Source: Clostridia bacterium (GTDB taxonomy: Bacteria > Bacillota > Clostridia > TANB77 > CAG-508). Taken from it: a DNA stretch of 64,000 nt. Positions within the stretch are counted from its first letter, which is position 1; every line of letters starts with the position of its first letter. The stretch lies in the NCBI GenBank assembly GCA_017470645.1, contig JAFUYJ010000001.1, positions 16,091-80,090 on the forward strand, in the 5' to 3' direction. Position numbers and translations under genes: made by a program. The notes under the pieces are model-generated. The model was not told the origin of the DNA and ran no database searches. It worked only from the letters and a program-made list of their open reading frames with translations. Of the stretch, positions 1 through 56,257 are shown in pieces.

Positions 1-1
1 T

Positions 2-1120
2 AAAGATTTGGATACGTCTAAATTTATAGATAAGATTAAGTCACAGTTAGAGTTGTTTATGGAATTTGTGGATGTTTTTACAATAGGGGTTACTGGTACA
101 AAGGGAAAAAGTACTACAAGTTCATTAATTTATGATATTGTAAGCAAGCAACGTAATGATGTACACTTGCTTGGAAATATTGGTGTTCCGTTGTTTGATG
201 AGATAGATAAATTAACTCCAAATTCAATTGTTGTGTTGGAATTATCTTCTCATCAATTGGAGTTTGCAAAGGTTTCGCCTAATATTGCTATTTTGTTAAA
301 TTTATTTGAAGAACATTTGGATCACTATAAGTCATATGAACATTATATTAATGCTAAATTAAATATTTGTAGGTATCAAAAACCAGAGGATTATTTCTTG
401 TATAGTATTGATAATGATTGCTTAAAAGAACATATAGAGAATATGGGAGAGTTAAAGCAACATGTTATAGAAATTAGCTTTGAGGGTAATAGTAAAGTTA
501 ATAATAGGGATAATATTGTTACAAGAAAAGAAAACAGTGCTTTAGCTGAGAATGGAGAGGTTTTATATACCGATTCTGAAGTAAGACAAATATTAGGTGA
601 TCATAATTTTAATAATATTATGTTTGCTGTTACGGTTGCTAAGATAATGAATCTTGATTTAAAGAAGGCGATGGAGGATATTTATAATTTTGCACCTTTA
701 GAGCATAGAATGGAATTTGTGGGTGAGATTGATGGTGTTAAATATTATAATGATTCTATTGCTACTATTCCGGCTTCTACGATTAATGGGGTTGAGACTT
801 TGAAAAATGTTAATACTTTAATAATTGGTGGAAAGGATAGGGGAATTGATTATACTGAATTTGCTGAGTTTTTAAGTAAAACTGATATTGAGCATTTGGT
901 TTGTCTTCCTGATACGGGATGGAAAATTGCGGATATGGTTGTAAATGAGGGTATGGAAAAGCATATTGTTCGTGATATGGAAGAAGCGGTTAGGGTTGCT
1001 AAAAAGGTTACTAAGAGGGGGATGAGTTGTTTGTTGTCTCCGGCTGCTTCTAGTTATGGGTTTTTTAAGAATTTTAAGGAAAGAGGTAATTTGTTTAAGA
1101 AGTTTGTGTTGGGGGTGTAA
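2..1120 (+). CDS. murD: UDP-N-acetylmuramoylalanine--D-glutamate ligase (MurD), 5'-truncated by the window edge
   Basis: The Mur-ligase P-loop GVTGTKGKSTT sits near the start of the visible ORF. In full-length MurD it lies about 100 aa in, so roughly 80 aa are missing upstream. The C-terminal LLSPAASSYGFFKNFKERGNLFKKFV matches the MurD C-terminal consensus. No in-frame stop occurs between the window start and 1120. Confidence 0.8.
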   Translation, partial: KDLDTSKFIDKIKSQLELFMEFVDVFTIGVTGTKGKSTTSSLIYDIVSKQRNDVHLLGNIGVPLFDEIDKLTPNSIVVLELSSHQLEFAKVSPNIAILLNLFEEHLDHYKSYEHYINAKLNICRYQKPEDYFLYSIDNDCLKEHIENMGELKQHVIEISFEGNSKVNNRDNIVTRKENSALAENGEVLYTDSEVRQILGDHNFNNIMFAVTVAKIMNLDLKKAMEDIYNFAPLEHRMEFVGEIDGVKYYNDSIATIPASTINGVETLKNVNTLIIGGKDRGIDYTEFAEFLSKTDIEHLVCLPDTGWKIADMVVNEGMEKHIVRDMEEAVRVAKKVTKRGMSCLLSPAASSYGFFKNFKERGNLFKKFVLGV

Positions 1121-1121
1121 T

Positions 1122-1405
1122 GTAGCCGCCAACGCTGTTTAATTAATTGATGATTGGTGGTGGTATGGGGATATATATTACTTTAAAAATGTTTCCCAAC
1201 AGCGCACAGAGAGTAATAATTCCTGAGTGTGAGGGACGGATGGATTTTGTATTGTTGATGTATTGAAAACGTTTTAGATCTATTGAGCCTATTGGGGAAT
1301 TATAACTCTCTGTAGCTAGCCGGTCCCCACTTAAGCCACATTTTTAAAGTAATATATATCCCCATACCACCACCAATCATCAATTAATTAAACAGCGTTG
1401 GCTAC
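1122..1405. repeat. Inverted-repeat element A. It has 64-bp perfect arms (1128-1191 and 1339-1402) around a ~150-bp core. The core holds a nested 17-bp stem (cagagagtaataattcc / ggaattataactctctg)
   Basis: Read directly from the sequence. The 5' arm gccaacgctgtttaattaattgatgattggtggtggtatggggatatatattactttaaaaatg is the exact reverse complement of the 3' arm. The element lies between the murD stop (1118-1120) and the antiporter start. Confidence 0.85.
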
Positions 1406-1457
1406 TCTGAAGACGGTAGATGGTTTTGTTAGATGTAAGGAAAGAGAGGATGTAGTT

Positions 1458-2420
1458 GTGGTAGTTTGGATTGTATTAATTGTTTTAGGATTTGTTTTGC
1501 TGATTAAGGGTGCAGATTTTTTAGTTGAGGGGGCAAGTAATATTGCTAAGAAGTTTCATATTCCGGAGATAATTATTGGGTTGACTATTGTGTCTATTGG
1601 TACTTCTATGCCGGAGTTGTTTGTTAGTATTACTTCAGCGATAGATGGGTATGCTGATATGGCTGTTGGGAATATTGTTGGGAGTAATATAGCTAATTTG
1701 TTGTTAATTTTGGGTATGTCGTCAATTATCAGAGCTATTAAGTTTAAGAGGGAGACTAGGTTGATTGAAATTCCAATGTGTTTAGGTGTTTCGCTGCTTT
1801 TTGTTTTACTATGTAATTTGGGACATAATATTACAAGAGTAGATGCTGGAATTTTGATTGTGCTTTTTGTATTGTTTATTGTGTATACAATTATAATGGC
1901 TAAAAAAGGTGAGGATTTTGATAAGGAAGATGACGATGAAATTGTTGTAGATCGAACTAAGTCAAGTAAATCAACTATTAAGGATATTGTGTTTTTGATT
2001 TTAGGAGCGGTATTGCTAAAAATTGGTGGAGATTTAACGGTTGAGAATGCGGTTGAGGTTGCTAAGCATTTTGGGTTAAGTGAGAAATTAATTAGCGTTA
2101 CAATATTAGCTGTTGGGACAAGCTTGCCAGAATTAGTTACGAGTGTTTCTGCAGCTTTTAAAGGTAAAAGTGATATTGCTATCGGTAATATTTTGGGTTC
2201 AAACATCTTTAATATGTTGTTGATAATTGGTGTTTCTGCAATGATTAAGCCTATTGTATATAATATGAGTTATAATTTAGATATGGTATTTTTAATTGGT
2301 GGTACTTTGGTGTTATCATTGTTTCCTATTATTCCACCAAAAAATAAGATGAGTAGAGGAAATGGCTTTGTGTATGTTTTGATTTATGCAGGGTATTTGG
2401 TAAGTTTATTTGTGAAGTAA
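1458..2420 (+). CDS. Ca2+/Na+ antiporter, CaCA family (YrbG-like)
   Basis: It carries the duplicated alpha-repeat motifs GTSMPELFVSITSA and GTSLPELVTSVSAA and is multi-TM. The track ORF starts at TTG 1398, which lies inside the IR arm. I prefer GTG 1458, which follows RBS aaagagagga and gives an N-terminus VVVWIVLIVLGFVLLIKGADF typical of the family. Confidence 0.8.
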   Translation: MVVWIVLIVLGFVLLIKGADFLVEGASNIAKKFHIPEIIIGLTIVSIGTSMPELFVSITSAIDGYADMAVGNIVGSNIANLLLILGMSSIIRAIKFKRETRLIEIPMCLGVSLLFVLLCNLGHNITRVDAGILIVLFVLFIVYTIIMAKKGEDFDKEDDDEIVVDRTKSSKSTIKDIVFLILGAVLLKIGGDLTVENAVEVAKHFGLSEKLISVTILAVGTSLPELVTSVSAAFKGKSDIAIGNILGSNIFNMLLIIGVSAMIKPIVYNMSYNLDMVFLIGGTLVLSLFPIIPPKNKMSRGNGFVYVLIYAGYLVSLFVK

Positions 2421-2475
2421 TGAATTGTATATAATTTTTATAAACAATAAATAGTTATTTGTGAGGAGGAAATTT

Positions 2476-2868
2476 ATGTATAGTGAGGATATTGAGTTAG
2501 CAAAAAATGCTAGATTAAAGGCATATTCGCCTTATAGTAATTATCAAGTTGGAGCAGTACTTAGAACTAAAAGTGGAAAAGCATATATAGGATGTAACAT
2601 TGAAAATCATGGAATACAAGGAATTTGTGCAGAACGAACAGCTTTTGCAAAAGCACTTTCAGAAGGTGAAAGGGAGTTTGAAAGTATAACAGTTGTTGGT
2701 GGAAAAAAAGGTGAAGAAGCTAGAGATAAATGTATGCCATGTGGATATTGTAGACAGTTTATGAGCGAGTTTGTAAATGATAATTTTAAAGTGTATGTTG
2801 TTGATAGAGACAATAATGTTAGTGAGTTTACTATGGGTGATTTATTGCCATATGGTTTTAAGATTTAA
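2476..2868 (+). CDS. cdd: cytidine deaminase
   Basis: Zinc-ligand motifs CAERTAFAKAL and CMPCGYCRQFM are present. ATG 2476 follows RBS gaggagg at 2464-2470. The track ORF carries a 5-aa N-terminal over-extension. Confidence 0.9.
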   Translation: MYSEDIELAKNARLKAYSPYSNYQVGAVLRTKSGKAYIGCNIENHGIQGICAERTAFAKALSEGEREFESITVVGGKKGEEARDKCMPCGYCRQFMSEFVNDNFKVYVVDRDNNVSEFTMGDLLPYGFKI

Positions 2869-6381: not shown

Positions 6382-6409
6382 TATTTTTTTTATGGCTTAG
6401 ATATTTTGC

Positions 6410-6633
6410 AGTAGTTCGCCTCAAAAAAAGTGCGTCAATGCTTATATTGTTTTATTCGTTTCGCCCCAACTACGAACCAAGAGTAAGAAAATATCATGCA
6501 AGATGGGATTGAGTGATATGGGTTTGAGTGTATTTTGCATGATATTTTCTAACTCTTGCTAGCTTGTTGGTCCCCACCTTGACTTCACTTCATAAAACAA
6601 TATAAGCATTGACACACTTTTTTTAGGCTACTC
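6410..6633. repeat. Inverted-repeat element B. Its ~40-bp arms (6417-6455 and 6592-6628, 1-2 mismatches) enclose a core with a nested 22-bp stem (caagagtaagaaaatatcatgc / gcatgatattttctaactcttg)
   Basis: Read directly from the sequence. The core shares a conserved head (CCCAAC..CG.AC.AGAGTAA.AA) and tail (TAGCT.G..GGTCCCCAC.TT.A) with element A. Confidence 0.85.
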
Positions 6634-6673
6634 TATGATAGTGAGGGCTAAATTGATATAGAAAGGATTTTGT

Positions 6674-8076: not shown

Positions 8077-8928
8077 ATGGAAAATAATTTGGTAATCAAA
8101 ACAGAAAAGATTTTTGAGAAAATAAAACATGTTGATGAAAGTGGTGTGGAATTCTGGTATGCAAGAGAGCTTATGGAAATACTTGAGTATACTAAATGGG
8201 GAAATTTTGTGAAGGTTATAAGTAAAGCAATGGAAGCATGTAAAAACAGTAATATCAATACTTCTGATCATTTTGCCGACGTCGGCAAAACGATAAAAAT
8301 GCCCAAAGGTGCAGAAAAGGTAGTTGATGATTTTAAATTGACAAGATATGCATGTTATTTAATTGCACAAAATGGTGATAGTAGGAAGAAAACTATAGCA
8401 TTGGCTCAAACATATTTTGCAGTACAAACTAGAAAGCAAGAAATAACAAGGCAGGAATATGAGCAATTAAGTGAAGATGAAAAAAGATTATATACAAGGC
8501 AAAATGTAAAAGATAAAAACAAGTTTTTGTTTGATACTGCCAAACTTGCTGGAGTTAAAAACTATGGAAAATTCAATAATTATGGATACAGAGGTTTATA
8601 TAATGGTGAAACTGCAAAAGATATAGCTAAAAGAAAAGGAATATCAGAAAAAGAGGATATTCTTGATTATATGAGTAGTACAGAATTAGCAACTAATCTA
8701 TTTAGAATTACGCAAACAGATGAGGTATTAAAAAACAAAAATATAAATAACGAAAATGATGCATGTAAAACACATCATAATGTTGGACAAGCGGTAAGAC
8801 AAACTATAAAAAGAATAGGTGGTACAATGCCTGAGGATATGCCAACGCCTAGAAAAAGTGCAAAAGAGATTGAAAAAGAAAAAATGAAAAGATTAGTAGA
8901 GAAAAACAATAAGAAGAAAGGAAAGTAA
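8077..8928 (+). CDS. dinD: DNA-damage-inducible protein D-like (Bro-N domain family)
   Basis: WYARELMEILEYTKWGNFVKVI...SDHFADVGKTIKM...LTRYACYLIAQNGDSRKK...AQTYFA matches the E. coli DinD/Bro-N consensus (FW.AREL, DHFvDV.KMv, LTRYACYL.AMNGDPRK, AQ.YF). Confidence 0.8.
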   Translation: MENNLVIKTEKIFEKIKHVDESGVEFWYARELMEILEYTKWGNFVKVISKAMEACKNSNINTSDHFADVGKTIKMPKGAEKVVDDFKLTRYACYLIAQNGDSRKKTIALAQTYFAVQTRKQEITRQEYEQLSEDEKRLYTRQNVKDKNKFLFDTAKLAGVKNYGKFNNYGYRGLYNGETAKDIAKRKGISEKEDILDYMSSTELATNLFRITQTDEVLKNKNINNENDACKTHHNVGQAVRQTIKRIGGTMPEDMPTPRKSAKEIEKEKMKRLVEKNNKKKGK

Positions 8929-20751: not shown

Positions 20752-21858
20752 TTGAATAGGAAAATTTTAAAAAATATAGAATGGTCAATTATAGTATGTG
20801 TAGTTATTTTGATAGCAATTGGTTGCGTAGCTTTGTATTCTGCGACTCAAAGTACGGAACATGATGAACTAATTAAACAGCTAATTTGGTTAGGTATAAG
20901 TATTCCAATAGTTGTTGCTATAATAGCTACGGACTATGAAATAATTATAAAAGCCGCACCAGTAGGGTATGGAGTGATGCTGCTTTTACTGGTAGCTGTA
21001 TTATTTACTCAACCAATAAATGGGGCTACTAGCTGGTTTACTTTAGGTTCTTTTTCATTGCAACCAGCAGAATTTACTAAAATATTTGTAATATTACTGT
21101 TAGCACTGGTAATATCTAAAGTACAAAAAGAAGGTAAGAATGAGATAAGTAAACCGTTGAAACTAGGTTTGTGTTTATTGGTAGTAGTTGTGCCTGTTCT
21201 ATTAATTATTAAACAGCCTGATTATGGTACTGCAATAGCATTTGTAATAGCAACAATTTTTATGCTTTATGCAGCAGGAATTAATAAGAAATATATTTTG
21301 GGATCAGTTCTTTTAACAATAGTAGTTTTGCCAGTAATGTATTTGTATATTTTACCGGACCATGCAAAAACAAGAATTGATGTATTTTTGAATCCAGATT
21401 TAGATCCGAGAGGATCTGGTTATAATATAATTCAATCAAAACTTGCTATAGGCTCTGGGCAATTACTTGGTATGGGAGTTAAACAAGGAAATCAAACACA
21501 ACTAGGTTATTTGTATCCTAAAACAACTGATTTTATTTTTTCTGTAATTGGAGAAGAAATGGGATTTGTTATTGCTGGTCTGATTATAGTTTTATATGTA
21601 GTGCTTATTACAAAGATTATTTATATTGCTAAAACTGCTAAAGATGATAAAGGTTCATATGTAGCTATTGGAATTGCGGGAATTTTTGCTTTTCATATGG
21701 TGGAAAATATTGGTATGGCTATGGGGTTATTGCCAATTACAGGTGTTCCTCTTCCTTTCGTGAGTTATGGTGGTAGTTCACTTTTGACTAATTTGGTTTT
21801 GATTGGATTGGTACTTAATATAAGTGGAAGAAGAAAAAAATCTTTGTTTATTGAGTAG
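20752..21858 (+). CDS. rodA: rod shape-determining protein RodA (FtsW/RodA/SpoVE family)
   Basis: 10-TM SEDS protein in the minDE-rodA context. TTG start follows RBS aaaggaga. Confidence 0.85.
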   Translation: MNRKILKNIEWSIIVCVVILIAIGCVALYSATQSTEHDELIKQLIWLGISIPIVVAIIATDYEIIIKAAPVGYGVMLLLLVAVLFTQPINGATSWFTLGSFSLQPAEFTKIFVILLLALVISKVQKEGKNEISKPLKLGLCLLVVVVPVLLIIKQPDYGTAIAFVIATIFMLYAAGINKKYILGSVLLTIVVLPVMYLYILPDHAKTRIDVFLNPDLDPRGSGYNIIQSKLAIGSGQLLGMGVKQGNQTQLGYLYPKTTDFIFSVIGEEMGFVIAGLIIVLYVVLITKIIYIAKTAKDDKGSYVAIGIAGIFAFHMVENIGMAMGLLPITGVPLPFVSYGGSSLLTNLVLIGLVLNISGRRKKSLFIE

Positions 21859-21867
21859 GAGAATAGA

Positions 21868-22890
21868 ATGGAAAAATTTATAAAAAAATTGAAAATTGGA
21901 AATGTTGAATTGAATAATAATGTTCTTCTGGCTCCTATGGCAGGAATAACTGATAGGGCTTTTAGAATTGTGTGTGAAGAATTTGGACCTGGGCTTGTTT
22001 GTACGGAGATGGTTAGTAGTAAGGGACTTTTTTATGATGATAAGAAAACTGACATGTTACTAAACATTGAAGGAGAGAAGAGACCTATTGCTGCTCAAAT
22101 TTTTGGAAACGATGTTGAGGCTATGAAGTATGCTGCAAGTTATGTGAGTAAAATCGCGGATATTGTTGATATCAATATGGGGTGTCCAGCTCCAAAGGTT
22201 GTTAAAAACGGAGATGGGAGCAAACTATTGTTGAATCTACCGTTGGTGGAAGAAATTGTAAGAGAGGTTGTAAAAGCTTCTTCTGTTCCTGTTACGGTGA
22301 AGATAAGAAAGGGATGGGATTCTAATAATATTGTTGCGGTTGAAGCTGCCAAAATAATTGAGAGAGCTGGTGCTTCTGCTATAACTATTCATGGTAGAAC
22401 TAGAAGTGAGTTTTATTCAGGAACAGCAGATTGGGATATAATTAGAAAGGTTAAAGAAAGTGTAAGCATTCCTGTAATTGGCAATGGTGATATAAAATCT
22501 AAAGAGGATGCAAAAAGAATGTTTGAGGAAACTGGTGTTGACGGAATAATGATTGGAAGGGGAGCATTAGGTAATCCTTGGATTTTTAAAGAAGTTATTG
22601 ATTATTTGAGTGATAACAATAAAGACGTTAATCAAGGTATAGACTGCAATGAATATATAGATAATTCAATTAATATTTCTAATGAAGAAAAACTAAGAAT
22701 TATTCTTAAACATATAGATCTAGAAGTAGAAGATAAGGGAGAAATAACAGCTGTAAGAGAGATGAGAAAGCATATTAGTTGGTACATAAAAAATTGTAGA
22801 GAGGCATCTAAATTTAGAGACACCGTAAATAGAATAGAAAATAGAAAAGAGCTGGAAGATTGTCTTAAGGAATATTTCGCTAGCTTATGA
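21868..22890 (+). CDS. dusB: tRNA-dihydrouridine synthase
   Basis: [13 protein letters not shown]...[10 protein letters not shown]...DINMGCP...GNGDI motifs of the Dus TIM barrel. Confidence 0.85.
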
Positions 22891-26264: not shown

Positions 26265-26891
26265 ATGAAAGAAAAAGAATTACTTAGATTACAAGAATTA
26301 CGAAAGTTTGAAGAAGATATATATTCACAAGGTACAGAATATATTTGCGGGATTGATGAAGCAGGACGTGGACCGCTTGCAGGACCAGTTGTTGTTGCTA
26401 GTGTTATTATGCCAAAAGATTCTATGATTGAAGGGGTCAATGATTCCAAAAAGGTTTCTGAAAAGAAAAGAGAAAGGTTATATGAAGAAATAATCAATCA
26501 GGCCATAAGTTACAGTGTTGGTATTGTTGATCAACAGGAAATTGATAGGGTTAATATATTAAATGCCACTAAGGCTGGTTTAACAGAGTCTATTAAAGGT
26601 TTAAAGGTTAAACCAGATATTATTTTGGTTGATGCATTAAATGGAATTGATACTTGTGGAATTCCGTATCATTCTATTATTAAGGGTGATGCTAAATGCT
26701 ATTCTATTGCTGCGGCTTCGATTATTGCTAAGGTAACTAGGGATAGAATTATGAGGCAGTGGCATGAGGTTTATCCACAGTATAATTTTATTCAACATAA
26801 GGGATATGGAACAGCTGCTCATATTGCAGCTATTAAGGAGTATGGGTTGTGTCCGTTGCATAGACGCAGTTTTGTTAAAAATATTGTGTAG
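26265..26891 (+). CDS. rnhB: ribonuclease HII
   Basis: GIDEAGRGPLAGPVV active-site motif and DSK motif. Confidence 0.9.
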   Translation: MKEKELLRLQELRKFEEDIYSQGTEYICGIDEAGRGPLAGPVVVASVIMPKDSMIEGVNDSKKVSEKKRERLYEEIINQAISYSVGIVDQQEIDRVNILNATKAGLTESIKGLKVKPDIILVDALNGIDTCGIPYHSIIKGDAKCYSIAAASIIAKVTRDRIMRQWHEVYPQYNFIQHKGYGTAAHIAAIKEYGLCPLHRRSFVKNIV

Positions 26892-26927
26892 GTTTTGACT
26901 ACTCTATATTTTGAGGAGGTAAATAAA

Positions 26928-28232
26928 ATGAATATATTGGATATTATCTGTAAAAAAAGAGATAAAGTTGAGTTGTCAAAACAGGAAATTAATTTTTTTG
27001 TTGAAGGGTATACTAATGGTGAAGTTACTGATTATCAGGCTGCAGCTTTGATAATGGCAATTTACTTAAATGGGATGACTGATGAAGAGATTACTAATTT
27101 GACTCTAGCTATGGCTTATTCGGGAGAGGTTTTGGATTTATCTAAGCTGGGGGAGAATGTTGTAGATAAACATAGTACAGGTGGAATTGGTGATAAGATT
27201 ACTTTGATTTTGATGCCTATTGTTGCTGCATTAGGTGTACCTGTAGCTAAAATGTCTGGAAGAGGTCTTGGTTTTACTGGTGGAACTGTGGATAAATTGG
27301 AGTCTATTCCTGGATATAACACACAAATTTCTGTTGAAGAGTTTATTCAAAACGTTGAGAATATTGGAATTAGCTTGATGGGGCAGACTTTAAACTTAGC
27401 ACCGGCTGATAAAAAAATATATGCTTTAAGAGATTCAATTAGTTGCGTTGAGAGTATTCCACTTATAGCTTCAAGTATTATGAGTAAGAAGATTGCTTCA
27501 GGAGCTAATAAGATTGTTTTAGAGGTTACAGTTGGTAATGGAGCTTTTATGAAGGATATAGATGATGCTAAAAAACTAGCTGAAACTATGATAAACATTG
27601 GAAAATTAGCTGGAAAAGAAGTTGTTTGTATTTTAACAAACATGGATGAGCCTTTAGGATATTCAATTGGAAACACATTAGAAGTAATAGAGGCAACCGA
27701 GGCACTTCAAGGTGATATGGATGAGGATGTAAAACAAGTTGTCTTAGAGTTAGGGAGCTATATGATTAAACTAGCAGGTTTTGGAGATGATATAGAGTCT
27801 AATAAACAAAAAATGCTTGATTGTATTGATAGTGGAATGGCGTATATGAAGTTCCTAGAGTTAATTCAGAATCAAGGAGGAGACATTTCTTATATAAATG
27901 ATGTTTCCAAATTTGAAAATGCAAAATACATATACACTGTGTTATCTGAAAAGGATGGTTATATTAAATCAATTGATGCGCAAAGTTTAGGAAAAATATC
28001 ATGTGAATTGGGTGCGGGAAGAGTTAAAAAAGAAGATGTAATAGACAATCAAGTTGGGCTAATTATTAACAAGAAAATCGGAGAAAAAATTGAAAAAGAT
28101 GATATCTTAGGAATTATACATGCTAATGACGAATTGAAATTAAAAAATGCCATAGAGGATTTTAAGAAAAGCTTTACTATTTGTGAAGAATATGTTGAAA
28201 AGCCAGAGGTAATTTTAGGAATAATGGAATAA
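26928..28232 (+). CDS. pdp: pyrimidine-nucleoside phosphorylase
   Basis: HSTGGIGDK, SGRGLGFTGGT and LMGQTLNLAPADKK motifs. ATG 26928 follows ggagg. The track start at 26895 lacks an RBS. Confidence 0.9.
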   Translation: MNILDIICKKRDKVELSKQEINFFVEGYTNGEVTDYQAAALIMAIYLNGMTDEEITNLTLAMAYSGEVLDLSKLGENVVDKHSTGGIGDKITLILMPIVAALGVPVAKMSGRGLGFTGGTVDKLESIPGYNTQISVEEFIQNVENIGISLMGQTLNLAPADKKIYALRDSISCVESIPLIASSIMSKKIASGANKIVLEVTVGNGAFMKDIDDAKKLAETMINIGKLAGKEVVCILTNMDEPLGYSIGNTLEVIEATEALQGDMDEDVKQVVLELGSYMIKLAGFGDDIESNKQKMLDCIDSGMAYMKFLELIQNQGGDISYINDVSKFENAKYIYTVLSEKDGYIKSIDAQSLGKISCELGAGRVKKEDVIDNQVGLIINKKIGEKIEKDDILGIIHANDELKLKNAIEDFKKSFTICEEYVEKPEVILGIME

Positions 28233-44200: not shown

Positions 44201-47200
44201 GATAAGTTAGATTTACTAAATAAAAATGAACAAGATTATGTTCGACACATTGCTGAAAAAACATGGCTTTTCTTTAAGGATTATATTAATGAAAAAACAA
44301 ATTTTTTGCCACCAGATAATTATCAGGAAGACAGAAATCCAAAAGTTGTAATGAGAACATCATCAACAAATATAGGATTAGCAATGCTTTCAATAATTTC
44401 AAGTTACGATTTAGAATTTGAAAACTTGGAAGATACCATAAACTTATTAGAAAAAACTATAAACACAGTTTATGGTTTACAAAAATGGAATGGTCATTTA
44501 TATAACTGGTATAATCTAGATAATTTAGATCCACTAACACCTAGATTTGTTTCATCAGTTGATAGTGGTAATTTTGTGGGATATTTATATGTTGTATATC
44601 AATTTTTGGAAAATGTGATTCAAACTGTAGATAGCCCCTTGACTTTAATAGATAAAATTAATTCAATGAAAATACAAGTAAAAGAATTAATTCAAAATAC
44701 TGATTTTACAAAACTATTTGACTATAAAAATAACTTATTCTCAGTAGGCTTTGATGTTGAAGAAAATAAATTAGTCGATTCATATTATGATTTGATTGCA
44801 TCTGAAGCAAGACAAGCAAGCTTAGTTGCCATAGCAAAAAAAGACATAGATGTAAAGAATTGGTATAACTTAAGTAGAACACTTACTGTATTAAATAAAT
44901 ATAAAGGATTGATTTCATGGTCAGGAACTTCATTTGAATATTTAATGCCAAACATAAATATTCCAAAGTATCCAGGAAGCTTATTAGATGAATCGTGCAA
45001 ATTTATGATAATGAGCCAGAAAGAATACACAAAAAAACTAGGAATTCCATGGGGAATATCGGAGTCAGCTTTTAATTTGAAAGATTTAAATAATAATTAT
45101 CAATACAAAGCTTTTGGAATCCCATGGCTTGGATTAAAAAGAGGTTTGGCAGATGAAATGGTTGTGTCATCCTATGGTTCAATTTTAGCAATAACAGAAG
45201 AACCAAAAGCTGTTTTGGAAAACATAAAGAAACTAGAAAAACAGGGCATGTACGATAAGTATGGATTCTATGAAGCAATAGATTATACTCCAAATAGGGT
45301 AGGTAAAAACAATAAATATGAAAATGTTAAAACATATATGGCACACCATCAGGCATTAATTTTACTATCAATTAATAATCTGTTTAACAAGAATATCCTA
45401 CAAAAAAGATTCATGAAAAATCCTGAAATGCAAGCAGTTAATATTTTATTAGAGGAAAGAATGCCTGAAAATATAGTTATAACAAAAGAACAGAAGGAAA
45501 AAGTAGAAAAGATAAAATACAATAATTATGACTATTATTCAGAAAAAACATTTACTAAAATAAATAATGATATAGATAGATATAATTTAATTGCAAATAA
45601 GGATTATACCATAATAATGGATGACAAAGGGAATGGCTTTAGCAAATATAAAGATATATTAATAAATAGATATAAACCAACATCCGATTTAGAGCAAGGA
45701 ATATACTTCTATGTAAAGAATATTAAAAATAAAAAAATTTGGACTAGTGGATACAATCATGGGTATGAAGAGCCTGATAAATACACTGTAACATTTGCAC
45801 CGGATAAAACTAAAATAGTAAGAATTGATGGGAACATAGAAACTAAAACAATAGTAACTGTAAGTCCAAATGATTCTGTAGAAATAAGAAGATTGGAAAT
45901 TAAGAATTTAGGAAACACTGATGAAACTTTAGAAATAAGCTCTTTTATAGAGCCAGTTCTATCAAAGAAAGAGCAGGATTACGCTCATCCAGCATTCAAC
46001 AATTTATTCTTAAGTTACGAGTATATTGCAGATACAAATACTATTTTGGTAAAGAGAAAAAAACGTTCTGAAAATGAGCAAGAAATGTATATGGCCGTGA
46101 ATCTATATTCAGAAGAAAGTTCAATTGGAGAAGTTGAATATGAACTTAGTAAAGAAAGATTTATAGGAAGAAATAATTTTGATATTCCAAAGCTTGTAGA
46201 AAATTCAAAACCATTTAGCAAGAAAGTTGAATTAACAACAGATCCTATTATTGCAATGAGAAAAACTATAAATATTAAAGCAAAGGAAAAGATAATATTT
46301 GATTTGATTATTTGTGTTTCAAAAGATAAAGAATATGTGTTAAATAAAATTAAAAAATATATGAATATTGATAATAACAAAAGAACATTTGAACTTTCAA
46401 AAGCAAGAGTTGAAGCAGAAAATAGATATTTAGAAATTACTGGAAAAGATATTGCTATGTATCAAAGATTGTTAAATTATATTATTGGAAATAATTTAAA
46501 TAGTAGTGGAAATGTATATTTGGAAGATATCTATCCAATAACAGAATTATGGAAATTTGGTATTTCTGGTGATTTTCCAATTGTTTTTGCTAAAATAAAA
46601 AATGTAAGTGATATTGATGTTATCTCAGAATTAGTCAAAGCGTACGAATATTTTAAAACCAAAAATCTAGAATTCGATTTAGTAATATTAAATGAAGAAA
46701 AGGAAAAATATGATAGCTATGTTAAGGATGCGATTCTTGATGCGATTTTAAACAGAAATTTAGCGTATATGTTAAATACCAAAGGTGGAATATACGTGCT
46801 AAATAACATCAAGGAGCAAGATGTTGATTTAATTTCTGTATATTCAAAATTAGTTATTGATGCAAAAAACGGAAACCTAAATTTACAGCTTAATGAGCTA
46901 GATGAGAATATTATTAAAATAAACAAGAATGATATGATAGAAAAACAAGAATTAACACAAGAGGAAAGAAAAGATAATTTATTGCTAAATAATAATCTAC
47001 AATATTATAATGATTTTGGCGGATTTTCACAGGATGGGAAGGAATACTTGATACGAGTAAATAAAAATGAAAATGTACCAATGCCATGGAGTCATATTTT
47101 AACAAATAAAAACTTTGGAACAGTCGTTACTGAAGGAATGGCTGGATATACATGGTATAAGAACAGCAGATTAAATAGAATTACTTCGTGGTCAAATAAT

Positions 47201-49422
47201 CCAGTTTTAGATGTGCCATCAGAAGCTATTTATATAAAAGATGATGAAACAAAAAAAGCGTGGTCTTTAGGTTTAAATCCTATGCCAGATAATAACGATT
47301 ATTATATAACATATGGATTCGGATATGCAAAATATCTTCATGAGAGTTTACGGTATAAAGCAAGAAGCGGAAATATTTGTTCCTAAAGACGACTGTGTAA
47401 AAGTGTATATGATTAGACTTAAAAATGAAACGCCTCGTAGGAGAAAATTAAAACTGGTTTACTATTTGAAACCTGTATTGGGGGAAGAGGAAGTAAAAAC
47501 AAATGAGTTTCTAAAGATGAAATATAACAAAAATAGCAATATGGTATTAGCTAAAAATGTTGTAAATTCTGATTTCCATGATATACTGTTTGTATCAAGT
47601 AGTGAGAAAATAAAATCATACACGGGACAAAAAAAAGAATTTATTGGAAATGGCGGACTACAAAATCCATCAGGTTTGAATTTAGACAATTTCAGTAATA
47701 ATTTTTCATGGAAATTAAGTAATATAATAGCAATTGAAATTGAGGTTGAGCTTGAATCATTGGAAAACAAAGAAATTTCAATAGTTATGGGAACAAATGA
47801 TACAATAATTGGATGCCAAGATTTAGCATACAAATATAGTAATTTAAATAATTGTTTCCAAGAAAATGAAACAGTAAGAAGATACTGGGGTGATTTATTA
47901 AGTAAAATACAAGTGAAAACACCGGTAGACTCTATGAACATTTTATTAAATGGATGGGTAATGTATCAAACAATAGCTAGCAGAATGTTGGGAAGAACAG
48001 GCTTTTATCAATCTGGAGGAGCTTTTGGATTTAGAGATCAGCTGCAAGATAGTTTAAGTGCCAAATATTTAAATCCAGAAATAACCAAAGAGCAAATTAT
48101 TAAACATAGCCAACATCAGTTTATAGAAGGAGATGTGGAACATTGGTGGCATGATGATACTAAAAGAGGAATTAGAACAAGATTTTCTGATGATTTATTA
48201 TGGTTACCATATGTAGTTGCAGATTATATAGAATTTACAGGTGATTATAGTATTTTGGATATTAAAACAAAATATATAGAAGGAAACGTATTAGAGGAAG
48301 GTGTTGACGAAAAATATGATTTATACTTGCCATCGGAAGAAGAAGGGACAATATTTGAGCATTGCGTAAAGGCTATAGAAAAATCACTAAAATTTGGTGA
48401 ACATGGATTGCCAAAAATAGGATCGGGAGACTGGAATGATGGATTTAGTACGGTTGGAAATAAAGGTAGAGGAGAAAGTGTATGGTTAGCTTTTTTCTTG
48501 GGTAGTGTATTACAGAAATTTATAAAAATATGCGAATATGAAGAAGGTAAACAAAACGTTGAAGAATATGCAGGAGCTGAAAAAGTAAGATCAAAGAGAT
48601 ATAAGGAAGTTTTAGAACAACTTAAAAAGTCTGTAAATATTAAGGCTTGGGATGGAAGATGGTTCAATAGAGCTTTTATGGATGATGGGAAGGTACTCCG
48701 GAAGTTTACAAAATGAAGAATGTAAGATAGATAGTATTGCTCAAAGCTGGTCTGTAATTTCAAATATGGGAGATAATGACAAGAAATATATATCAATGGA
48801 AAGTTTAGAAAATCACCTAGTGGATACCGAAAACGGAATTATAAAACTTTTAGATCCTCCTTTTGAAAATGGAGATATAGAACCTGGGTATATTAAGGCA
48901 TATCTACCTGGAACCAGAGAAAATGGCGGTCAATACACGCATGCTGCTATTTGGGTAATAATTGCAGAATCAATGTTAGGACTTGGAAATAAAGCTACAG
49001 AATATTTTAGAATGATTAATCCGATTGAACACACTAAAACGAAAGATAGTGTTATGAAATATAAAGTGGAACCGTATATTATTCCAGCTGATGTGTATGG
49101 ACAAGGAAATTTATTAGGACGTGGTGGATGGACTTGGTATACTGGTTCAAGTAGTTGGATGTATATAGCAGGAATAAAATATATTTTAGGATTAAATATT
49201 GAAAATGGTTATATGAGTTTTAATCCATCTATTCCAAGCGAGTGGAAAGAGTATGAAATAAAATATAAAAATGGTGAAACGAGATACAATATAAAGATTA
49301 AAAATATTAACGATAAAAGTAATAAGGGAAAAACTGTAAAATTGAATGGGGATGTAATTGAGAATGGAAAAATAAAACTAGAAGGTAATGGAGGGGTAAA
49401 TGAAATAGAAGTAGAAATATAA
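41270..49422 (+). pseudogene. cyclic beta-1,2-glucan synthase-like giant protein (N-terminal domain, glycosyltransferase domain, TM region, C-terminal GH94 glycoside-phosphorylase-like domain). It is split into three ORFs by two +1 frameshifts near 47348 and 48699
   Basis: ORFs 41270-47386, 47313-48716 and 48652-49422 run in successive frames with 74- and 65-bp overlaps. The sequence reads continuously across each junction once one base is removed: ...KYLHES|(V)YGIKQEAEIFVP... and ...DDGKVL|GSLQNEECKIDSIAQSW... GH94-type motifs (GFRDQLQDS, HWWHDDT, WGISESAFN) and the total of ~2700 aa fit Cgs/NdvB-like proteins. The start codon is ambiguous among GTG 41270, TTG 41279 and ATG 41297. Confidence 0.7.
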
Positions 49423-51776: not shown

Positions 51777-54700
51777 ATGTCAATTAGATTAATATATGGA
51801 AAATCAGGCTCAGGAAAAAGTGAGTTTATATTTAATGAGATAAAAGAGTTAATAAATTGTGGAAAAAAGATATATATAATTACTCCAGAACAGTTTTCTT
51901 TTACTGCTGAAAAAAAGTTACTTGAGACTTTAGGAAATTCGGCAGTATTAAATGCTGAGGTTTTAACTTTTAACAGAATGGCATACAGAGTAGCAGCAGA
52001 AGTAGGGGGAACTGCAAAAATAAATATATCAAATTCAGGAAAAGCAATGCTAATTTATAACATTTTATGTGGTAAAAAAAGTAAGCTAAAATTTCTTGGA
52101 AAGTCAGATGAAAACATAGAGCTTATTATTGATCAAATTACAGAGTTTAAAAAGCATGGAGTTATGGTTGACGATTTAAATAAGACTATGGAAGAAACAA
52201 CAGACAACTATTTGAAATTAAAAATACAAGATATTTTGCAGGTATATAGTGAATTTGAAAATAAAATAGAGAATCGATATATTGATGAAAATGATAACTT
52301 AACTAATCTTGCAAATCAATTAATAGATGTTAATATATTTGATAATACTTTAATTTATATAGACGAGTTTGTAGGATTCACAAAGCAAGAATATGAAATT
52401 ATAAAACAGCTAGCTAAGGTTGCAAGTCAGGTAAATATAACTATTTGCTCTGATTCCATAGAAGATAGCTTTTCTCCTGAAAGTGATGTCTTTTTTTCAA
52501 ATAAATTGACTATATCTAGGTTATTTGAAATTGTAAAATCAGAAGAAATACCATTAGATGATCCGGTTTGCTTAGATACTATTTACAGATTTAAGAATAA
52601 AGAACTAGAACATTTGGAAAGAAATTTGTATGCAATTCCATATAAAAAATACGAAGAACAGCCTGAAAATATCAAACTATTTTTAGCAAATAATCAATAT
52701 TCAGAAATTGAAAATGTTGCAATTAACATTGTTAAGTTAGTAAGAAATGAAAACTACAGATATAAGGATATAGCTGTAATTACAAAGGGGCTTGATGTAT
52801 ATTCAAATTTGGTTAAAGTAGTATTTAATAAATATCAAATTCCAGTTTTCATTGATGAAAAGAAAGATTTAAGCCAAAATATTATCGTAAAATATATACT
52901 TTCTATATTAGAAATTTTTGCAAGAAATTGGTCATATGAATCTGTTTTAAATTATGTTAAAACAGGATTTTTAGACATAAGCAAACAAGAAATATTTATG
53001 CTTGAAAACTATTGCCAAAAGTGGGGGATAAAGAATAATAAGTGGTATAAATCAGAGTGGAATTTTAAAGATGAGGATGATACAAATAGAGAGCAAATAG
53101 AAAGAATAAGAGAAATGAGAAGGATGATAGTAAATCCATTACTAGAATTCAAAGATAGCTTATCTGGGGCAAATAATGTAAAAAATATTACAATGAATCT
53201 ATATGATTTTTTAATAAAAAATGAAATCGACAAGAAGTTTGAAAACAAAATTGAGGAATTAAAAATGGCTGGACAGACTGAGTTTGCAACGCAATATGAA
53301 ACAAGCTGGAAAATTATTATGAATGTATTAGATGAAATTGTTTTGGTTTTTGGTGATGAAAAAGTTTCATTTGATAAATATATGCAAATATTAAAAACAG
53401 GACTGGCAAGTAGCGATTTAGGTAAAATACCTGGAACGCAAGATCAAGTAATTATAGGTGATATTGATAGATCAAGAAGTCATAAGGTCAAAGCTATATT
53501 TATAATAGGTTTAAATGATGGAATGTTTCCTTCTGTACATAAAAATGAAGGATTTTTTAACGATAATGATAGACAGTATTTAAAAGAAAGAGGAATGGAA
53601 CTTGCTAGAAATACAATAGAAAGCTTATACGAAGATAATTTCAATATATACAAAGCCTTTACAACTGCTGAGGAAAAATTATTTTTATCATATTCATCTT
53701 CAAATTCAGAGGGAAAGACTTTAAGAGGTTCAATACTAATATCAAAAATGAAAAAAATATTTCCAAAATTAGAGGAAGATAGCGATATAATTGAAAGAAC
53801 ATCTGAGATTTTAATTGAAAATACTACATTTGACGAATTACTAAATAAACTAGGAGAATATAGAGATACAGGTGAAATAAGTGATGAATGGGTAGAGGTT
53901 TATAATTATTACAAGAATAATAAAGTATGGAAGTATAAATTAGAAAAGGCAATGGAAGCACTTCTATATAACAATAAACCAGAGAAAATAAATCAAAAGA
54001 ACATTTCAAAAATGTATGGAGATACCTTAAGGACTAGCGTTTCAAGGTTGGAACAATATCAAGCGTGCCATTTTGCTTATTATTTAAAGTATGGATTAAA
54101 GTTATCTGAAAAAGATAATTTTAAAATTAATCCGGTTGATACTGGTACATTTATGCATGATGTAATAGATACGTTTTTTAATAGTATTAAGGAAAGATCA
54201 TATGATGTAAAAGATTTATCTGATGAGCAAATTAGAGAGCTTGTTGAAGAAATTATTGATGAAAAATTAGGATTAAATAAAAATTATATATTTACAAGTT
54301 CTCCAAAGTATAAGGCTTTAAGTATGCGTTTGAAAAAAGTTATTTTTAGATCTATGAAATATATTGTTGATAGTTTGAAATATAGTAAGTTTGATGTGTT
54401 AGGAAACGAAGTAGAATTCAAAGAGGGTAAAGAGTATCCGCCAATTACTATGAAATTAGATAATGGACAAAATGTTGAGATTACTGGAAAGATTGATAGA
54501 ATTGATATTGCAAAGTTGGATGGTAATAATTATGTACGTATTATAGATTATAAATCTTCTGCTAAAAATATTGATTTGAATCAGGTGTATGCGGGGTTAC
54601 AGCTTCAGTTAATTACTTACTTAGATGCTGTTTGTAATGCTGAGGATTTAATGCCGGCGGGGGTTTTATATTTTAATTTGATTGATCCTGTTGTTAAGTC

Positions 54701-55136
54701 TAAGAAGAGTTTGTCTGAGGAGGAAATTGAGGAGAAGATTAGGAAACAGTTTAAGATGCAAGGGCTTATTTTGGCTGATGTGGATGTTGTTAAGATGATG
54801 GATACTAATTTGGAGACGGGTGCTTCTAATGTTGTTCCGGCGTATGTTGGGAAAGATGGAACTTTGAGTAGTACACGTTCAAGTTCGGTTAGTAGAAAGC
54901 AATTTGAGTATTTGCAGAAGTATACTAATAGGATTATTAAGCAGATTTCTTTGGAGATTTTGAGTGGAAATATTGATATTAATCCGTATTATAATACTAA
55001 GAATAAGAAGACGCCTTGTGATTTTTGTGCGTATAAGTCGGTTTGTAATTTTAATGGGGCGGATTGTACGAATGGGTATAATTATATTGCTAATGCGGAG
55101 AAGGAGGCTGTGTTGGAGATGATGCAGGAGGAGTGA
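51777..55136 (+). CDS. addB: helicase-exonuclease AddAB, subunit AddB (RexB)
   Basis: N-terminal Walker A GKSGSGKSE. C-terminal RecB-type nuclease with an Fe-S Cys cluster (CHFAYYL...CDFCAYKSVC). 1119 aa. Confidence 0.9.
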   Translation: MSIRLIYGKSGSGKSEFIFNEIKELINCGKKIYIITPEQFSFTAEKKLLETLGNSAVLNAEVLTFNRMAYRVAAEVGGTAKINISNSGKAMLIYNILCGKKSKLKFLGKSDENIELIIDQITEFKKHGVMVDDLNKTMEETTDNYLKLKIQDILQVYSEFENKIENRYIDENDNLTNLANQLIDVNIFDNTLIYIDEFVGFTKQEYEIIKQLAKVASQVNITICSDSIEDSFSPESDVFFSNKLTISRLFEIVKSEEIPLDDPVCLDTIYRFKNKELEHLERNLYAIPYKKYEEQPENIKLFLANNQYSEIENVAINIVKLVRNENYRYKDIAVITKGLDVYSNLVKVVFNKYQIPVFIDEKKDLSQNIIVKYILSILEIFARNWSYESVLNYVKTGFLDISKQEIFMLENYCQKWGIKNNKWYKSEWNFKDEDDTNREQIERIREMRRMIVNPLLEFKDSLSGANNVKNITMNLYDFLIKNEIDKKFENKIEELKMAGQTEFATQYETSWKIIMNVLDEIVLVFGDEKVSFDKYMQILKTGLASSDLGKIPGTQDQVIIGDIDRSRSHKVKAIFIIGLNDGMFPSVHKNEGFFNDNDRQYLKERGMELARNTIESLYEDNFNIYKAFTTAEEKLFLSYSSSNSEGKTLRGSILISKMKKIFPKLEEDSDIIERTSEILIENTTFDELLNKLGEYRDTGEISDEWVEVYNYYKNNKVWKYKLEKAMEALLYNNKPEKINQKNISKMYGDTLRTSVSRLEQYQACHFAYYLKYGLKLSEKDNFKINPVDTGTFMHDVIDTFFNSIKERSYDVKDLSDEQIRELVEEIIDEKLGLNKNYIFTSSPKYKALSMRLKKVIFRSMKYIVDSLKYSKFDVLGNEVEFKEGKEYPPITMKLDNGQNVEITGKIDRIDIAKLDGNNYVRIIDYKSSAKNIDLNQVYAGLQLQLITYLDAVCNAEDLMPAGVLYFNLIDPVVKSKKSLSEEEIEEKIRKQFKMQGLILADVDVVKMMDTNLETGASNVVPAYVGKDGTLSSTRSSSVSRKQFEYLQKYTNRIIKQISLEILSGNIDINPYYNTKNKKTPCDFCAYKSVCNFNGADCTNGYNYIANAEKEAVLEMMQEE

Positions 55137-55156
55137 TTTTTTTAGTGTGTTGCCGA

Positions 55157-55308
55157 GAGAAAAGAATTAATATTTTATAAAAAAGTAATCCCTCCAAACG
55201 CGGTGGTGTTTGAGATTGTTCGGGGTGCGTGGTACGATAACTGGTTGGGTTAGATGTTTTTGGGCTCAGGTCGGAATTAATTTTTTATAAAATATTAATT
55301 CTTTTCTC
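55157..55308. repeat. Inverted-repeat element C: perfect 28-bp arms (55157-55184 and 55281-55308) enclose a 96-bp relatively GC-rich core
   Basis: gagaaaagaattaatattttataaaaaa and its exact reverse complement. It lies 21 bp after the addB stop. Confidence 0.8.
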
Positions 55309-55417
55309 CGAGGGAGTGTGTGTGGTATATTTAAAGTTATGTTTTTTGGGGTGAATAGTGTATTTATAATTTTTGTTTTTTTCGTGTGTGAGTAGTTTAT
55401 TTATATATTTGTAAAGG

Positions 55418-56257
55418 ATGTGTTTGGGTTTGAGAGATTTGAGTAATGAGGTTGTGATTCATAAGAGGGAGAATGGGTTTGAGTTTTTGCAGTTTAGGAA
55501 GTTGTTGGAGCTTGGGGTTAAGCATGCTTATAGTTTGAAGCCACATTTTTTTAATACTAGACCGGGGGTTGTAAGTAGTGAGACTTATAGTGCTGCGGTG
55601 GATAATTATGCTAGGTTTTGTAATGTGATTGGTGTGGATGTGAATAAGCTTGTTAAGCCTAATCAGACTCATACAAACTGTGTGAAAATTGTGGATAACT
55701 TGCCTGGAAAGATGAGTATTGAAGAAGATATGTTTAAGGATGTTGATGGATTGGTTACTAATATTGAAGGGGTTTCTTTGGCTTCTGTTAATGCGGATTG
55801 TATTTTACTTCTTTTTTATGATCCGGTGAAAAGAGTAATTGGTAATGTGCATTCTGGTTGGAGAGGAACTTTTGCTAAGATTGCGGCAAATGGTGTTAAT
55901 AAAATGGTTCAGAGTTATGGGTGTAATCCAGAGGATATAATTGTGTGCATTTGTCCAAGTATTAGGAAATGTCATTTTGAGGTTAAAGAAGATGTAAAAA
56001 AATTGTGCGAGGATACGTTTGGCTATACAAATAGGTTAAATGATTTTATTGAGTATATAGGAAAAGATATAGATGGAACTGGCAAGTGGAGAATCGATAC
56101 GGTTTTAGTTACAAAAGTTTTGCTTCAAGAATGTGAAATTAAGGAAAACAATATTTATGACTGCGGAATTTGCAGTGTGTGTAATAAAGATATTATTCAT
56201 TCCTATAGAGGAGATGGGAAGGATGCTGGTCGAGGCACTGCTATTATTTCACTGTAG
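55418..56257 (+). CDS. pgeF: YfiH/PgeF (DUF152) family purine-nucleoside-phosphorylase/laccase-domain protein
   Basis: Family-typical spacing of the His/Cys/His metal ligands (NCVKI..., HSGWRGT, CICPSIRKCHFEV). Confidence 0.75.
   Translation: MCLGLRDLSNEVVIHKRENGFEFLQFRKLLELGVKHAYSLKPHFFNTRPGVVSSETYSAAVDNYARFCNVIGVDVNKLVKPNQTHTNCVKIVDNLPGKMSIEEDMFKDVDGLVTNIEGVSLASVNADCILLLFYDPVKRVIGNVHSGWRGTFAKIAANGVNKMVQSYGCNPEDIIVCICPSIRKCHFEVKEDVKKLCEDTFGYTNRLNDFIEYIGKDIDGTGKWRIDTVLVTKVLLQECEIKENNIYDCGICSVCNKDIIHSYRGDGKDAGRGTAIISL

Follow-up and report, generated by a model that had tools for sequence, protein, structure and literature searches.

The addB-pgeF locus and its setting

A stretch of 64,000 nucleotides from a Clostridia bacterium (GenBank assembly GCA_017470645.1, contig JAFUYJ010000001.1), referred to as the window, was analysed for a local, one-strand change of base composition in the genes addB and pgeF, between which lies a hairpin element. 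The window belongs to a metagenome scaffold of 500 kb (ENA ERZ28654714 scaffold_7). Its G+C content is about 30%, its GC skew is above zero nearly throughout and its + strand carries 43 of the 48 large open reading frames. The + strand is the G-rich one of the replichore (leading-strand sequence and template for the lagging strand), and most genes are encoded on it. Third-position composition, taken in 100-codon windows of + strand genes, is about 45% A, 7% C, 12% G and 36% T across the window, with a background G/(A+G) of 0.15-0.25 and about 50% keto bases (G+T, as opposed to the amino bases A+C). The comparison set consists of about 30 related metagenomic loci (L001 etc.) from uncultured gut Clostridia of rabbit, human and sheep rumen. 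The features of the locus are as follows.

51777..55136, + strand: addB, AddB helicase-nuclease subunit (Pfam ADDB_N, AddB_5th, PDDEXK_1), last ~1 kb recoded
54100..56100, + strand: G+T patch C, covering the addB 3' end, the spacer and the 5' two-thirds of pgeF; core 54560-55750
55141..55321, + strand: C-type hairpin element in the addB-pgeF spacer, ~160 nt; arms 55157-55192 and 55273-55308
55418..56257, + strand: pgeF/YfiH-family gene (Cu-oxidase_4, Pfam PF02578); gene caller start 55424

Graded recoding of addB and pgeF

The original prediction, made from the bases of the window, described an abrupt and synonymous switch from A- to G-ending codons in the 3' end of addB that continued through pgeF. 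The switch itself is borne out by counts over eleven codon pairs, A- and G-ending codons standing at 318:83 in addB before 54380 and at 48:121 in the remainder of addB together with the first half of pgeF (Fisher p = 2e-30). In the last 580 nt of addB, AAA:AAG is 3:14 and GAA:GAG is 1:13; the earlier count of 14 AAG was right, and that of two AAA was one too low. It had also been stated that T-ending codons do not shift to C-ending ones, and our analysis agrees: T:C goes from 320:51 before 54380 to 196:5 in patch C (p = 5e-6), and C-ending codons are nearly gone. At fourfold sites the shares before and within the patch are 54% and 14% for A, 5% and 33% for G, and 38% and 53% for T. The loss of third-position A to G, together with the near-loss of C-ending codons, means that the + strand has undergone A->G and C->T changes and has also gained some T. 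The proposed keto enrichment of this strand is thus real, but it is not A->G alone, since C->T and the T gain join.

Between 54569 and 55747 third positions hold 5-10% A, 0-2% C, 37-45% G and 50-54% T, corresponding to a G/(A+G) of 0.80-0.90 and a keto content of 89-95%. This state is not reached abruptly. The number of A+C third positions per 60 codons toward the addB stop runs 39, 30, 31, 22, 21, 12, 4, 7, 1, and past the element in pgeF it recovers through 4, 9, 12 and 24. Patch C is a bell-shaped gradient of ~1 kb on each side, with no step, and it peaks in the 281-nt spacer between the two genes. Its GC skew is 0.53 and its TA skew +0.13, against 0.23 and -0.12 outside.

Neither is the change limited to synonymous sites, as codon positions 1 and 2 shift likewise. 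The first ~130 codons of pgeF are recoded and the amino-acid composition of the protein is shifted; over the first 130 codons A at position 2 accounts for 38-42% in patch-bearing sequences and for 48-54% in the others, with G and T higher, and the shift in AddB is smaller than in PgeF. For the window's own pgeF this share is 38%, compared with 50-54% for orthologues that have no patch. No dependence of A->G on the 5' or 3' neighbouring base was found. Codon-level or translational selection was considered as a cause and rejected, because the patch boundaries ignore genes and because positions 1 and 2 shift.

Hairpin elements in the spacers

Two further elements of the window, which belong to one family, and a second strong patch have to be considered together with the C-type element.

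1..2600, + strand: G+T patch A, covering the murD 3' part, the spacer and the Na+/Ca2+ exchanger gene; clipped by the window start
1122..1409, + strand: A-type hairpin element, 289 nt; arms of 65-72 nt, perfect, at 1128-1192 and 1338-1402
6418..6633, + strand: B-type element of the same family as the A-type, between a cation-efflux gene and an Rsm22-family gene

The C-type element is flanked by direct repeats of CCGAG (55153-55157 and 55308-55312) and has a predicted fold energy of -55.6 kcal/mol (z = -4.9). Its core is G+T-rich and contains, in order, CCAAACGCGG, TACGATAA and GGGCTCAGGTCGGA. Elements at the addB-pgeF site were located at window 55141-55321, L004 13437-13622, L002 4403-4625 and L016 9374-9514, and also in L017, L022 and L031. 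The ends of the element are constant, GTGTGTTGCCGAG standing outside the first stem arm and CCGAGGGAG outside the second, and the core is of three unrelated types that are discordant with the host phylogeny, the window sharing its type with the distant L004. Unrelated cores between the same CCGAG-flanked stem ends look like the outcome of cassette-like replacement.

The A-type element is predicted to fold with -151.8 kcal/mol (z = -16), and its nhmmer match has an E-value of 6e-77. Its inner motifs CCCAACAGCGCAC and GGTCCCCAC are conserved and its apical loop is hypervariable and G+T-rich. Twelve copies of the A/B family were found, all in the same orientation, and the family is dispersed (window 1122-1409 and 6418-6633, L016 4726-4953, L044 1779-1978). 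The copies share the invariant A/C-rich motifs CCCAAC..CG.AC..AGAGTAA and TAACTCT...TAGCT.G..GGTCCCCAC, which flank the hypervariable G+T-rich apical region inside long outer stems. G+T-rich apical loops are common to the A- and B-type, and G+T makes up 72-77% of the unpaired positions in the C-type elements of the window, L004 and L021.

The outer stem sequence of the A/B family varies between species and its pairing is retained. RNAalifold detected compensatory double changes in 19 of 83 pairs, and the outer stem is essentially free of one-sided (wobble) changes; between the window and L032 there are two stem differences, both fully compensated. A constraint acting on RNA only, under A->G and C->T pressure, would tolerate G-U pairs, and their absence suggests that the hairpin arises in DNA. 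Correction of the stem would then also take place in DNA, perhaps through template switching from one arm to the other.

Searches for a known identity of the elements gave little. At gathering thresholds, Rfam returned a single tRNA for the whole window, and Rfam searches by E-value of both element regions yielded chance miRNA-like matches only, no family fitting the elements. Plasmid blastn with both elements found nothing relevant, pattern scans of IMG/VR for the two conserved A/B motifs gave no match, and a literature search with motif strings brought up nothing relevant. Promoter and terminator scans detected no conserved signal, a promoter-like match in the C core not being kept in L004. 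According to Pfam, the genes around elements A and B are all housekeeping, with no reverse transcriptase, transposase or DNA deaminase among them; the cdd gene at 2461-2868 encodes a cytidine deaminase of the ordinary kind.

Some observations concern the architecture of such repeats. In L043, which is 99% identical to L044 and of the same species, the ~50-nt arms are kept and a 147-nt core is absent; the missing part lies exactly between the direct C-rich motifs CCCCAAC and CCCCACC of L044 1779-1978. Either a microhomology deletion or an insertion with short duplication would account for this difference. Large inverted repeats without a patch also lie at L006 5152-5233 and L010 14285-14355. 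The arms in the patch-free group, to which two loci discussed below also belong, reach 117 nt, and these repeats carry in their arms TGGGGAC, the reverse complement of part of the A/B motif GGTCCCCAC.

Element presence and patches among relatives

At the addB-pgeF junction the element is present in the window, L004/L021/L024, L002/L020, L016, L017, L022 and L031, and all of these show the peak, with a G+T content of 0.61-0.71 (300-nt windows) and G3/(A3+G3) up to 0.6-1.0. In L001, L003, L007/L025, L008/L019, L009, L012, L023 and L030 the spacer is short, the element is missing and there is no such peak. Of two other element-free loci, L005 shows a weaker rise and L010 reaches 0.56-0.61. The single exception to the rule is L006, where a moderate patch occurs without the element.

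A second junction offers the same comparison. The A-type element between murD and the antiporter gene is syntenic in the same-species loci L032/L033 (98% identity) and in the other species L034, L036 and L046. In the five element loci G3/(A3+G3) over 50 codons on each side is 52-81% upstream and 24-61% downstream; in L045, where murD and the antiporter gene are 3 nt apart with no element, it is 17% and 8%. Patch A of the window has a third-position G/(A+G) of 0.41-0.69 and a gradient of the same shape as patch C, peaking at the A-type element (1122-1409). The B-type element (6418-6633) is accompanied by a weak patch only (~6186-7075), with a third-position keto content (keto3) of 0.655 at its junction against a control mean of 0.514.

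When the junctions are pooled, keto3 is 0.65-0.92 at 10 element junctions and 0.514 +/- 0.085 at 154 control junctions, which lie between co-oriented genes (Mann-Whitney p = 2.5e-7); these counts are phylogenetically dependent and represent about five independent cases. In the mean profile of 11 elements G+T is 0.66 in the 150 nt on each side and returns to 0.50 by about -750 and +900 nt, and the polarity is equal on both sides. A focal, two-sided, one-strand amino-to-keto bias thus tracks the elements. Double-strand break and resection models were rejected, as they would give opposite polarity on the two sides.

Selection offers one explanation of this association, if flanks rich in G/U and poor in A/C served the element by avoiding competing pairings or by supplying C-rich antisense RNA for Rho termination. 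The elements are under selection, seen in the conserved A/C-rich motifs that persist inside the patch and in the covarying stems, and G<->T differences within the species are over-represented. However, selection would have to act on hundreds of synonymous sites up to 1 kb away and be strong enough to alter AddB and PgeF residues, patch strength varies greatly among species with the same element, and L006 has a patch without one. We consider this explanation very improbable.

The original prediction had also listed a chimeric or mixed-strain assembly as a candidate, and the window does derive from a metagenome scaffold. A Logan contig, assembled independently, nevertheless encodes an identical AddB, two other samples contain patch A at 98% identity, and assemblies from further studies and hosts show patches at these same junctions. 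Since the patches recur across samples, assemblers and studies, and with reading frames intact and proteins conserved, an assembly chimera, collapsed strains or a sequencing artefact can be set aside with next to no residual doubt.

Local mutation versus import

Another candidate put forward earlier was mosaicism by homologous recombination, that is, import or gene conversion from biased donors, the element acting as a mobile marker that drags donor flanks along by co-conversion. Inter-species recombination is indeed demonstrable in this clade. L003 and L004 are ~99% identical over ~4 kb of addB and ~70% in the flanks (L004 9077-13347, L003 8200-12469), and the right-hand junction of L003 truncates the L004 patch abruptly, G3/(A3+G3) dropping from 48% to 11%. 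L004 and L021 share ~8 kb centred on addB, so that the segments shared among L003, L004 and L021 measure 4-8 kb at 97-99% identity. These comparisons indicate recent inter-species recombination around addB. The discordance of the element core types with the host phylogeny, and the link of gene conversion with the skewed regions termed GRINS (see below), also speak for import.

As an origin of the bias, import fares worse. No broad or genome-wide bias was found among the ~30 relatives, in which the bias is confined to local patches, and there is thus no broadly biased donor among them. AddB amino-acid identity to the relatives per 80-residue block is not lower in the patch, and nucleotide identity per 300 nt shows no discontinuity there. 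The window and L004 share a core type and have dissimilar flanks, with PgeF 53% identical and C-terminal AddB identity not raised. Growth in place fits the shape of the gradient and the differing degrees of strength seen between species at one site, and import would merely relocate the question of where the bias arose. We therefore regard mosaic import as the source of the bias as a distinctly unlikely alternative; recombination moves or truncates patches and gives them abrupt edges, and it does not create the bias.

Recent divergence gives a measure of the process. Divergence between the window and L032 is 2.7% in patch A, ~3x the 0.9% found in the 3.9 kb that follow. With G/(A+G) set to 0.2 and 0.67, a simple two-state calculation gives a transition flux raised ~3.3-fold, in agreement with the ~3x divergence, which is the size expected for a ~8-fold rise of the A->G rate. 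The direction of recent substitutions (L004/L021, window/L032) involves small numbers, and forward and reverse changes should balance at equilibrium, so only the density in patch A is informative. Within window 900-2400, G<->T transversions account for 11 of the 40 differences from L032, an excess.

Altogether the data fit a bias that arose in place as local directional mutation pressure, and not by import or chimerism. Of the explanations named in the original prediction, the localised strand-specific mutational process is thus the one favoured, given the element-centred gradient, the shift at three codon positions, the lack of sequence context and the presence/absence contrast at two loci.

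Strand dependence

All strong patches lie in + strand genes, and transcription and replication are therefore confounded. Two minus-strand genes next to A/B family elements are of interest in this respect.

L016 4350-4655, - strand: GIY-YIG gene; coding-strand C3/(C3+T3) 0.56, 0.38 and 0.15 in successive bins away from the element
L044 and L043, - strand: HtrA-like gene; C3/(C3+T3) 0.40-0.45 in the first 40 codons, 0.37-0.42 in the next 40, then 0.04-0.20

The minus-strand background of C3/(C3+T3) for the GIY-YIG gene is 0.18 +/- 0.12, with a 99th percentile of 0.56. HtrA-like orthologues without an element have 0.09-0.23, with one bin of 0.37. A rise of C on the coding strand of a minus-strand gene is a rise of G on the + strand, and the enrichment accordingly stays on the + strand. 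This pattern weighs against a simple non-template-strand cause and favours a rule of replication direction or element orientation, although it is suggestive only.

The L016 gene encodes a stand-alone GIY-YIG nuclease of 102 aa (Pfam PF01541, E = 1.6e-15) and adjoins the B-type element at L016 4726-4953. Gene and element lie together in a ~560-nt insertion relative to the synteny of the window, which is a single case.

Coding-strand G+T excess is the known direction of transcription-associated asymmetry, and a transcription-linked cause deserves attention. Heavy transcription or an R-loop would expose the non-template + strand, the displaced hairpin would stabilise the R-loop and A and C of the coding strand would deaminate. 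The direction of the bias and the location of all strong patches in + strand genes agree with this, an R-loop spanning the element would give a two-sided gradient on one strand, and G-rich RNA would reinforce R-loops. Yet in both minus-strand genes the template strand, here the + strand, is the enriched one, and the enrichment grows toward the element; read-through + strand transcripts over these genes may offer a way out. Furthermore, the patch extends ~1 kb into the upstream gene, ignoring gene boundaries, and the scans found no conserved strong promoter. On balance a transcription-linked origin seems rather improbable.

The same polarity on both sides also bears on error-prone polymerase resynthesis of the + strand at the element, in the course of gap filling, restart after a stall or template switching, with mispairs of the G:T wobble or tautomer kind. 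The signature predicted for such synthesis, keto misincorporation in the + strand, is the one seen. The lack of sequence context, the raised local divergence and the re-perfected stems, as in quasipalindrome template switching, are also in line with it, and a tautomer or error-prone hypothesis figures in the Discussion of the GRINS paper (PMC8256042). Break- or nick-centred synthesis, however, normally flips polarity across the two sides, which is not seen; there is no known reason why the + strand alone should be affected on both sides of the element, and the elements of the window have no polymerase or nuclease gene associated with them. We see in resynthesis an unlikely explanation, though one with some claim to attention.

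Other patches and features of the window

The recurrence of the composition elsewhere in the window, as originally predicted, is confirmed for 1-2570, 21756-22362, 26585-27335 and, weakly, for the start of the Rsm22 gene (G/(A+G) 0.35), and three patches contain or abut inverted-repeat elements as had been claimed. Two weaker patches lie apart from any element.

21750..22360, + strand: weaker G+T patch before dusB, G/(A+G) 0.44-0.49 (21756-22362), without element
26585..27335, + strand: weaker G+T patch at the rnhB-pdp junction, G/(A+G) 0.49-0.52, without element

The rnhB-pdp spacer holds GTAGG followed at a distance by GACTACTCT, resembling the outer ends of A/B elements. The idea that this patch is the scar of an excised element was rejected, as none of the four relatives compared has an element at the junction. 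Among the relatives, the junction of ogg and addB carries a G+T patch in L009 (9716-10237), L010 (9770-10210) and L018 (1663-1723), with no element in the spacer. The addB gene of L009 and L010 (from 10001) has a frame that ends after 507 codons and resumes in another frame; a frameshift common to both or an error of assembly would account for this.

Two more features of the window were noted. Between 7640 and 8343 there are two 106-nt direct repeats (7640-7745 and 8238-8343), each with a 38-nt palindrome, and a Bro-N-domain gene (8077-8928) has its 5' part between the repeats and the second repeat inside it. This region is probably a small mobile or prophage remnant; relatives have ORF6N/HicB genes in the neighbourhood of the Bro-N gene. 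A giant GH94/glycoamylase-type gene (41270-49422) appears as three overlapping open reading frames (41270-47386, 47313-48716 and 48652-49422), and the source annotation likewise splits it into three genes.

Proposed mechanism

The reading that we favour, with a probability of roughly 0.45, is a focal, strand-fixed amino-to-keto pressure that acts in place on the + strand and is centred on the family of hairpin elements, deamination of single-stranded DNA being its most likely mechanism. Its foci would be the conserved hairpin elements in spacers between co-oriented genes, and its effect would decay within ~0.75-1 kb on both sides. The conversions on the + strand would be A->G and C->T, with a secondary rise of T, and protein constraint would filter the pressure, leaving it near-saturating at synonymous sites and still visible at replacement sites.

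As judged from the signature, the + strand, being the lagging-strand template, may be single-stranded recurrently and for unusually long around the element, since unwinding lets a long perfect inverted repeat fold back on itself. Deamination of unpaired A and C on this strand would then yield hypoxanthine and uracil, read as G and T in copying. The paired stems may be protected or continually re-perfected, with the loops and flanks left exposed. Inter-species recombination would later shift or truncate the patches without creating them. A study on mitochondrial genomes describes A->G and C->T deamination as faster on single-stranded DNA and reports replication-linked gradients that are strongest at third positions (PMC3269015).

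Several observations weigh against the favoured reading. Large inverted repeats occur without a patch at L005 7767-8072 and L008 11187-11643, and patches occur without an element at window 21750-22360 and 26585-27335, in L009 (9716-10237) and in L006, which lacks the addB-pgeF element and keeps a moderate patch, its closest relatives having the element. Pure deamination does not predict the rise of T at fourfold sites or the excess of G<->T differences within the species. The minus-strand evidence consists of two genes and is of modest amplitude, and element, gene and inferred replication share one orientation in almost every case; the window and all loci come from stretches in which the + strand is G-rich, and none from the opposite replichore was identified. 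The single-strandedness is deduced from the signature itself, and a model of lagging-strand gaps predicts one-sided exposure, whereas the gradient is two-sided. Finally, spontaneous deamination of adenine is slow, so that a very large local increase is needed, and no enzyme has been identified.

In a broader form, the proposal would be that a conserved hairpin family provides foci of natural, strand-specific local hypermutation, which recode ~2 kb of housekeeping neighbours and speed up protein evolution. We put this forward tentatively, as a possibility that falls short of being probable. Bacterial mutation rate and spectrum are usually treated as near-uniform along a replichore, and here an element of 160-290 nt is linked to near-saturating recoding of one strand, strong enough to alter the amino-acid composition of PgeF. 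If the proposal is true, it may reveal a new hairpin-dependent DNA transaction or enzyme. Exposure of single-stranded DNA, R-loops and error-prone synthesis become experimentally distinguishable at such loci. A practical warning also follows for codon and composition scans, in which patches of this kind mimic horizontal transfer, and they inflate local synonymous divergence.

Comparison with known systems

Long terminal inverted repeats around a structured core, a location in spacers and dispersal are shared by the elements with retron msr-msd, REP/REPIN and MITE-like sequences, and the 5-nt direct repeat CCGAG that flanks the C-type copies adds to the resemblance. The elements differ from all of these in having no adjacent reverse transcriptase or transposase gene and no Rfam match. 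Moreover, their arms vary between copies and their inner motifs are conserved, and they are syntenic across species with compensatory stem changes. With regard to retron noncoding RNA in particular, the elements have an inner hairpin between long inverted repeats and show no recognisable msr stem-loops; no reverse transcriptase gene lies immediately downstream, the downstream genes being those for the Na+/Ca2+ exchanger, Rsm22 and PgeF. As for a diversity-generating retroelement, the window holds no second copy of the region and there is no reverse transcriptase among the genes examined; the change here is A->G and C->T over 2 kb, and not from adenines to any base.

The patches bear a close likeness to the bias of the vertebrate mitochondrial H strand, which comprises the same A->G and C->T on one strand and is graded with single-stranded time, C->T reaching saturation before the graded A->G. 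There, too, third positions are the most strongly affected (PMC3269015). The mitochondrial gradient, however, spans the genome and is set by the origin, and the patches are peaks of +/-1 kb at an intergenic hairpin of a bacterial chromosome and are much steeper.

The chromosome-wide excess of G+T on leading strands has the same sign as the window-wide skew. Ordinary replichore skew is nevertheless near-uniform and modest, corresponding here to a third-position keto content of ~50%, whereas the patches are local 2-kb peaks of up to 95%. Transcription-associated asymmetry has the same direction in + strand genes, but the polarity of the patches is not bound to the coding strand in the two minus-strand genes, their amplitude is far larger and they are centred on spacers. 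A recombination mosaic is marked by a break in relatedness; none is present in the window, and a true mosaic exists in L003/L004.

The closest precedent is GRINS, reported in 2021 in PNAS as kilobase stretches of functional genes where GC and TA skews are intense and correlated, the mechanism being unknown (PMC8256042). Their skews are strongest at third positions and amino-acid use is shifted to G/T-rich codons (PMC8256042). Deamination is discussed by the authors, as are C->T and A->G errors driven by tautomers, and skewed regions present in a single copy are mentioned (PMC8256042). By definition, GRINS are duplicated with >80% identity; they are linked to gene conversion and were described in polyketide synthase genes of high-GC Streptomyces (PMC8256042). 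Positive and negative skews occur on one strand and change abruptly (PMC8256042). The words hairpin, palindrome and inverted are absent from the main text (PMC8256042), and the titles and abstracts of later papers citing it do not address mechanism.

Measured against that definition, patch C (~2 kb) and patch A (at least 2.5 kb) exceed the length of >500 bp, and their mean absolute GC skews in 150-nt windows (0.53 and 0.46) exceed the threshold of >0.15. The two skews are positively correlated within the patches (r = +0.43 in patch C and +0.30 in patch A) and negatively outside (r = -0.43). Mean absolute TA skew is 0.14 in both, below the required >0.15, and the shift from the background of -0.12 is +0.25. 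A blastn search of both patches against the 64-kb window gave only self matches and element arms. Since they are not duplicated in the window and their absolute TA skew of 0.14 is below 0.15, the patches are not GRINS as published. They also differ in being single-copy in the window, in lying in housekeeping genes of 30%-GC Clostridia, in having one polarity and a bell shape, and in being centred on hairpins.

The recoding around the elements points to a local one-strand mutation process of a kind so far described only in antibiotic-synthesis genes, as GRINS, and there without a mechanism. If the broader proposal of hypermutation foci is true, the elements would provide the first anatomical handle on GRINS-type skews, a nucleating sequence with presence/absence controls. 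The new content of the present analysis is this nucleating element together with its natural controls, and the patches supply what the GRINS work lacks: a focal point, a polarity, a decay length with distance and natural comparisons of loci with and without the element.

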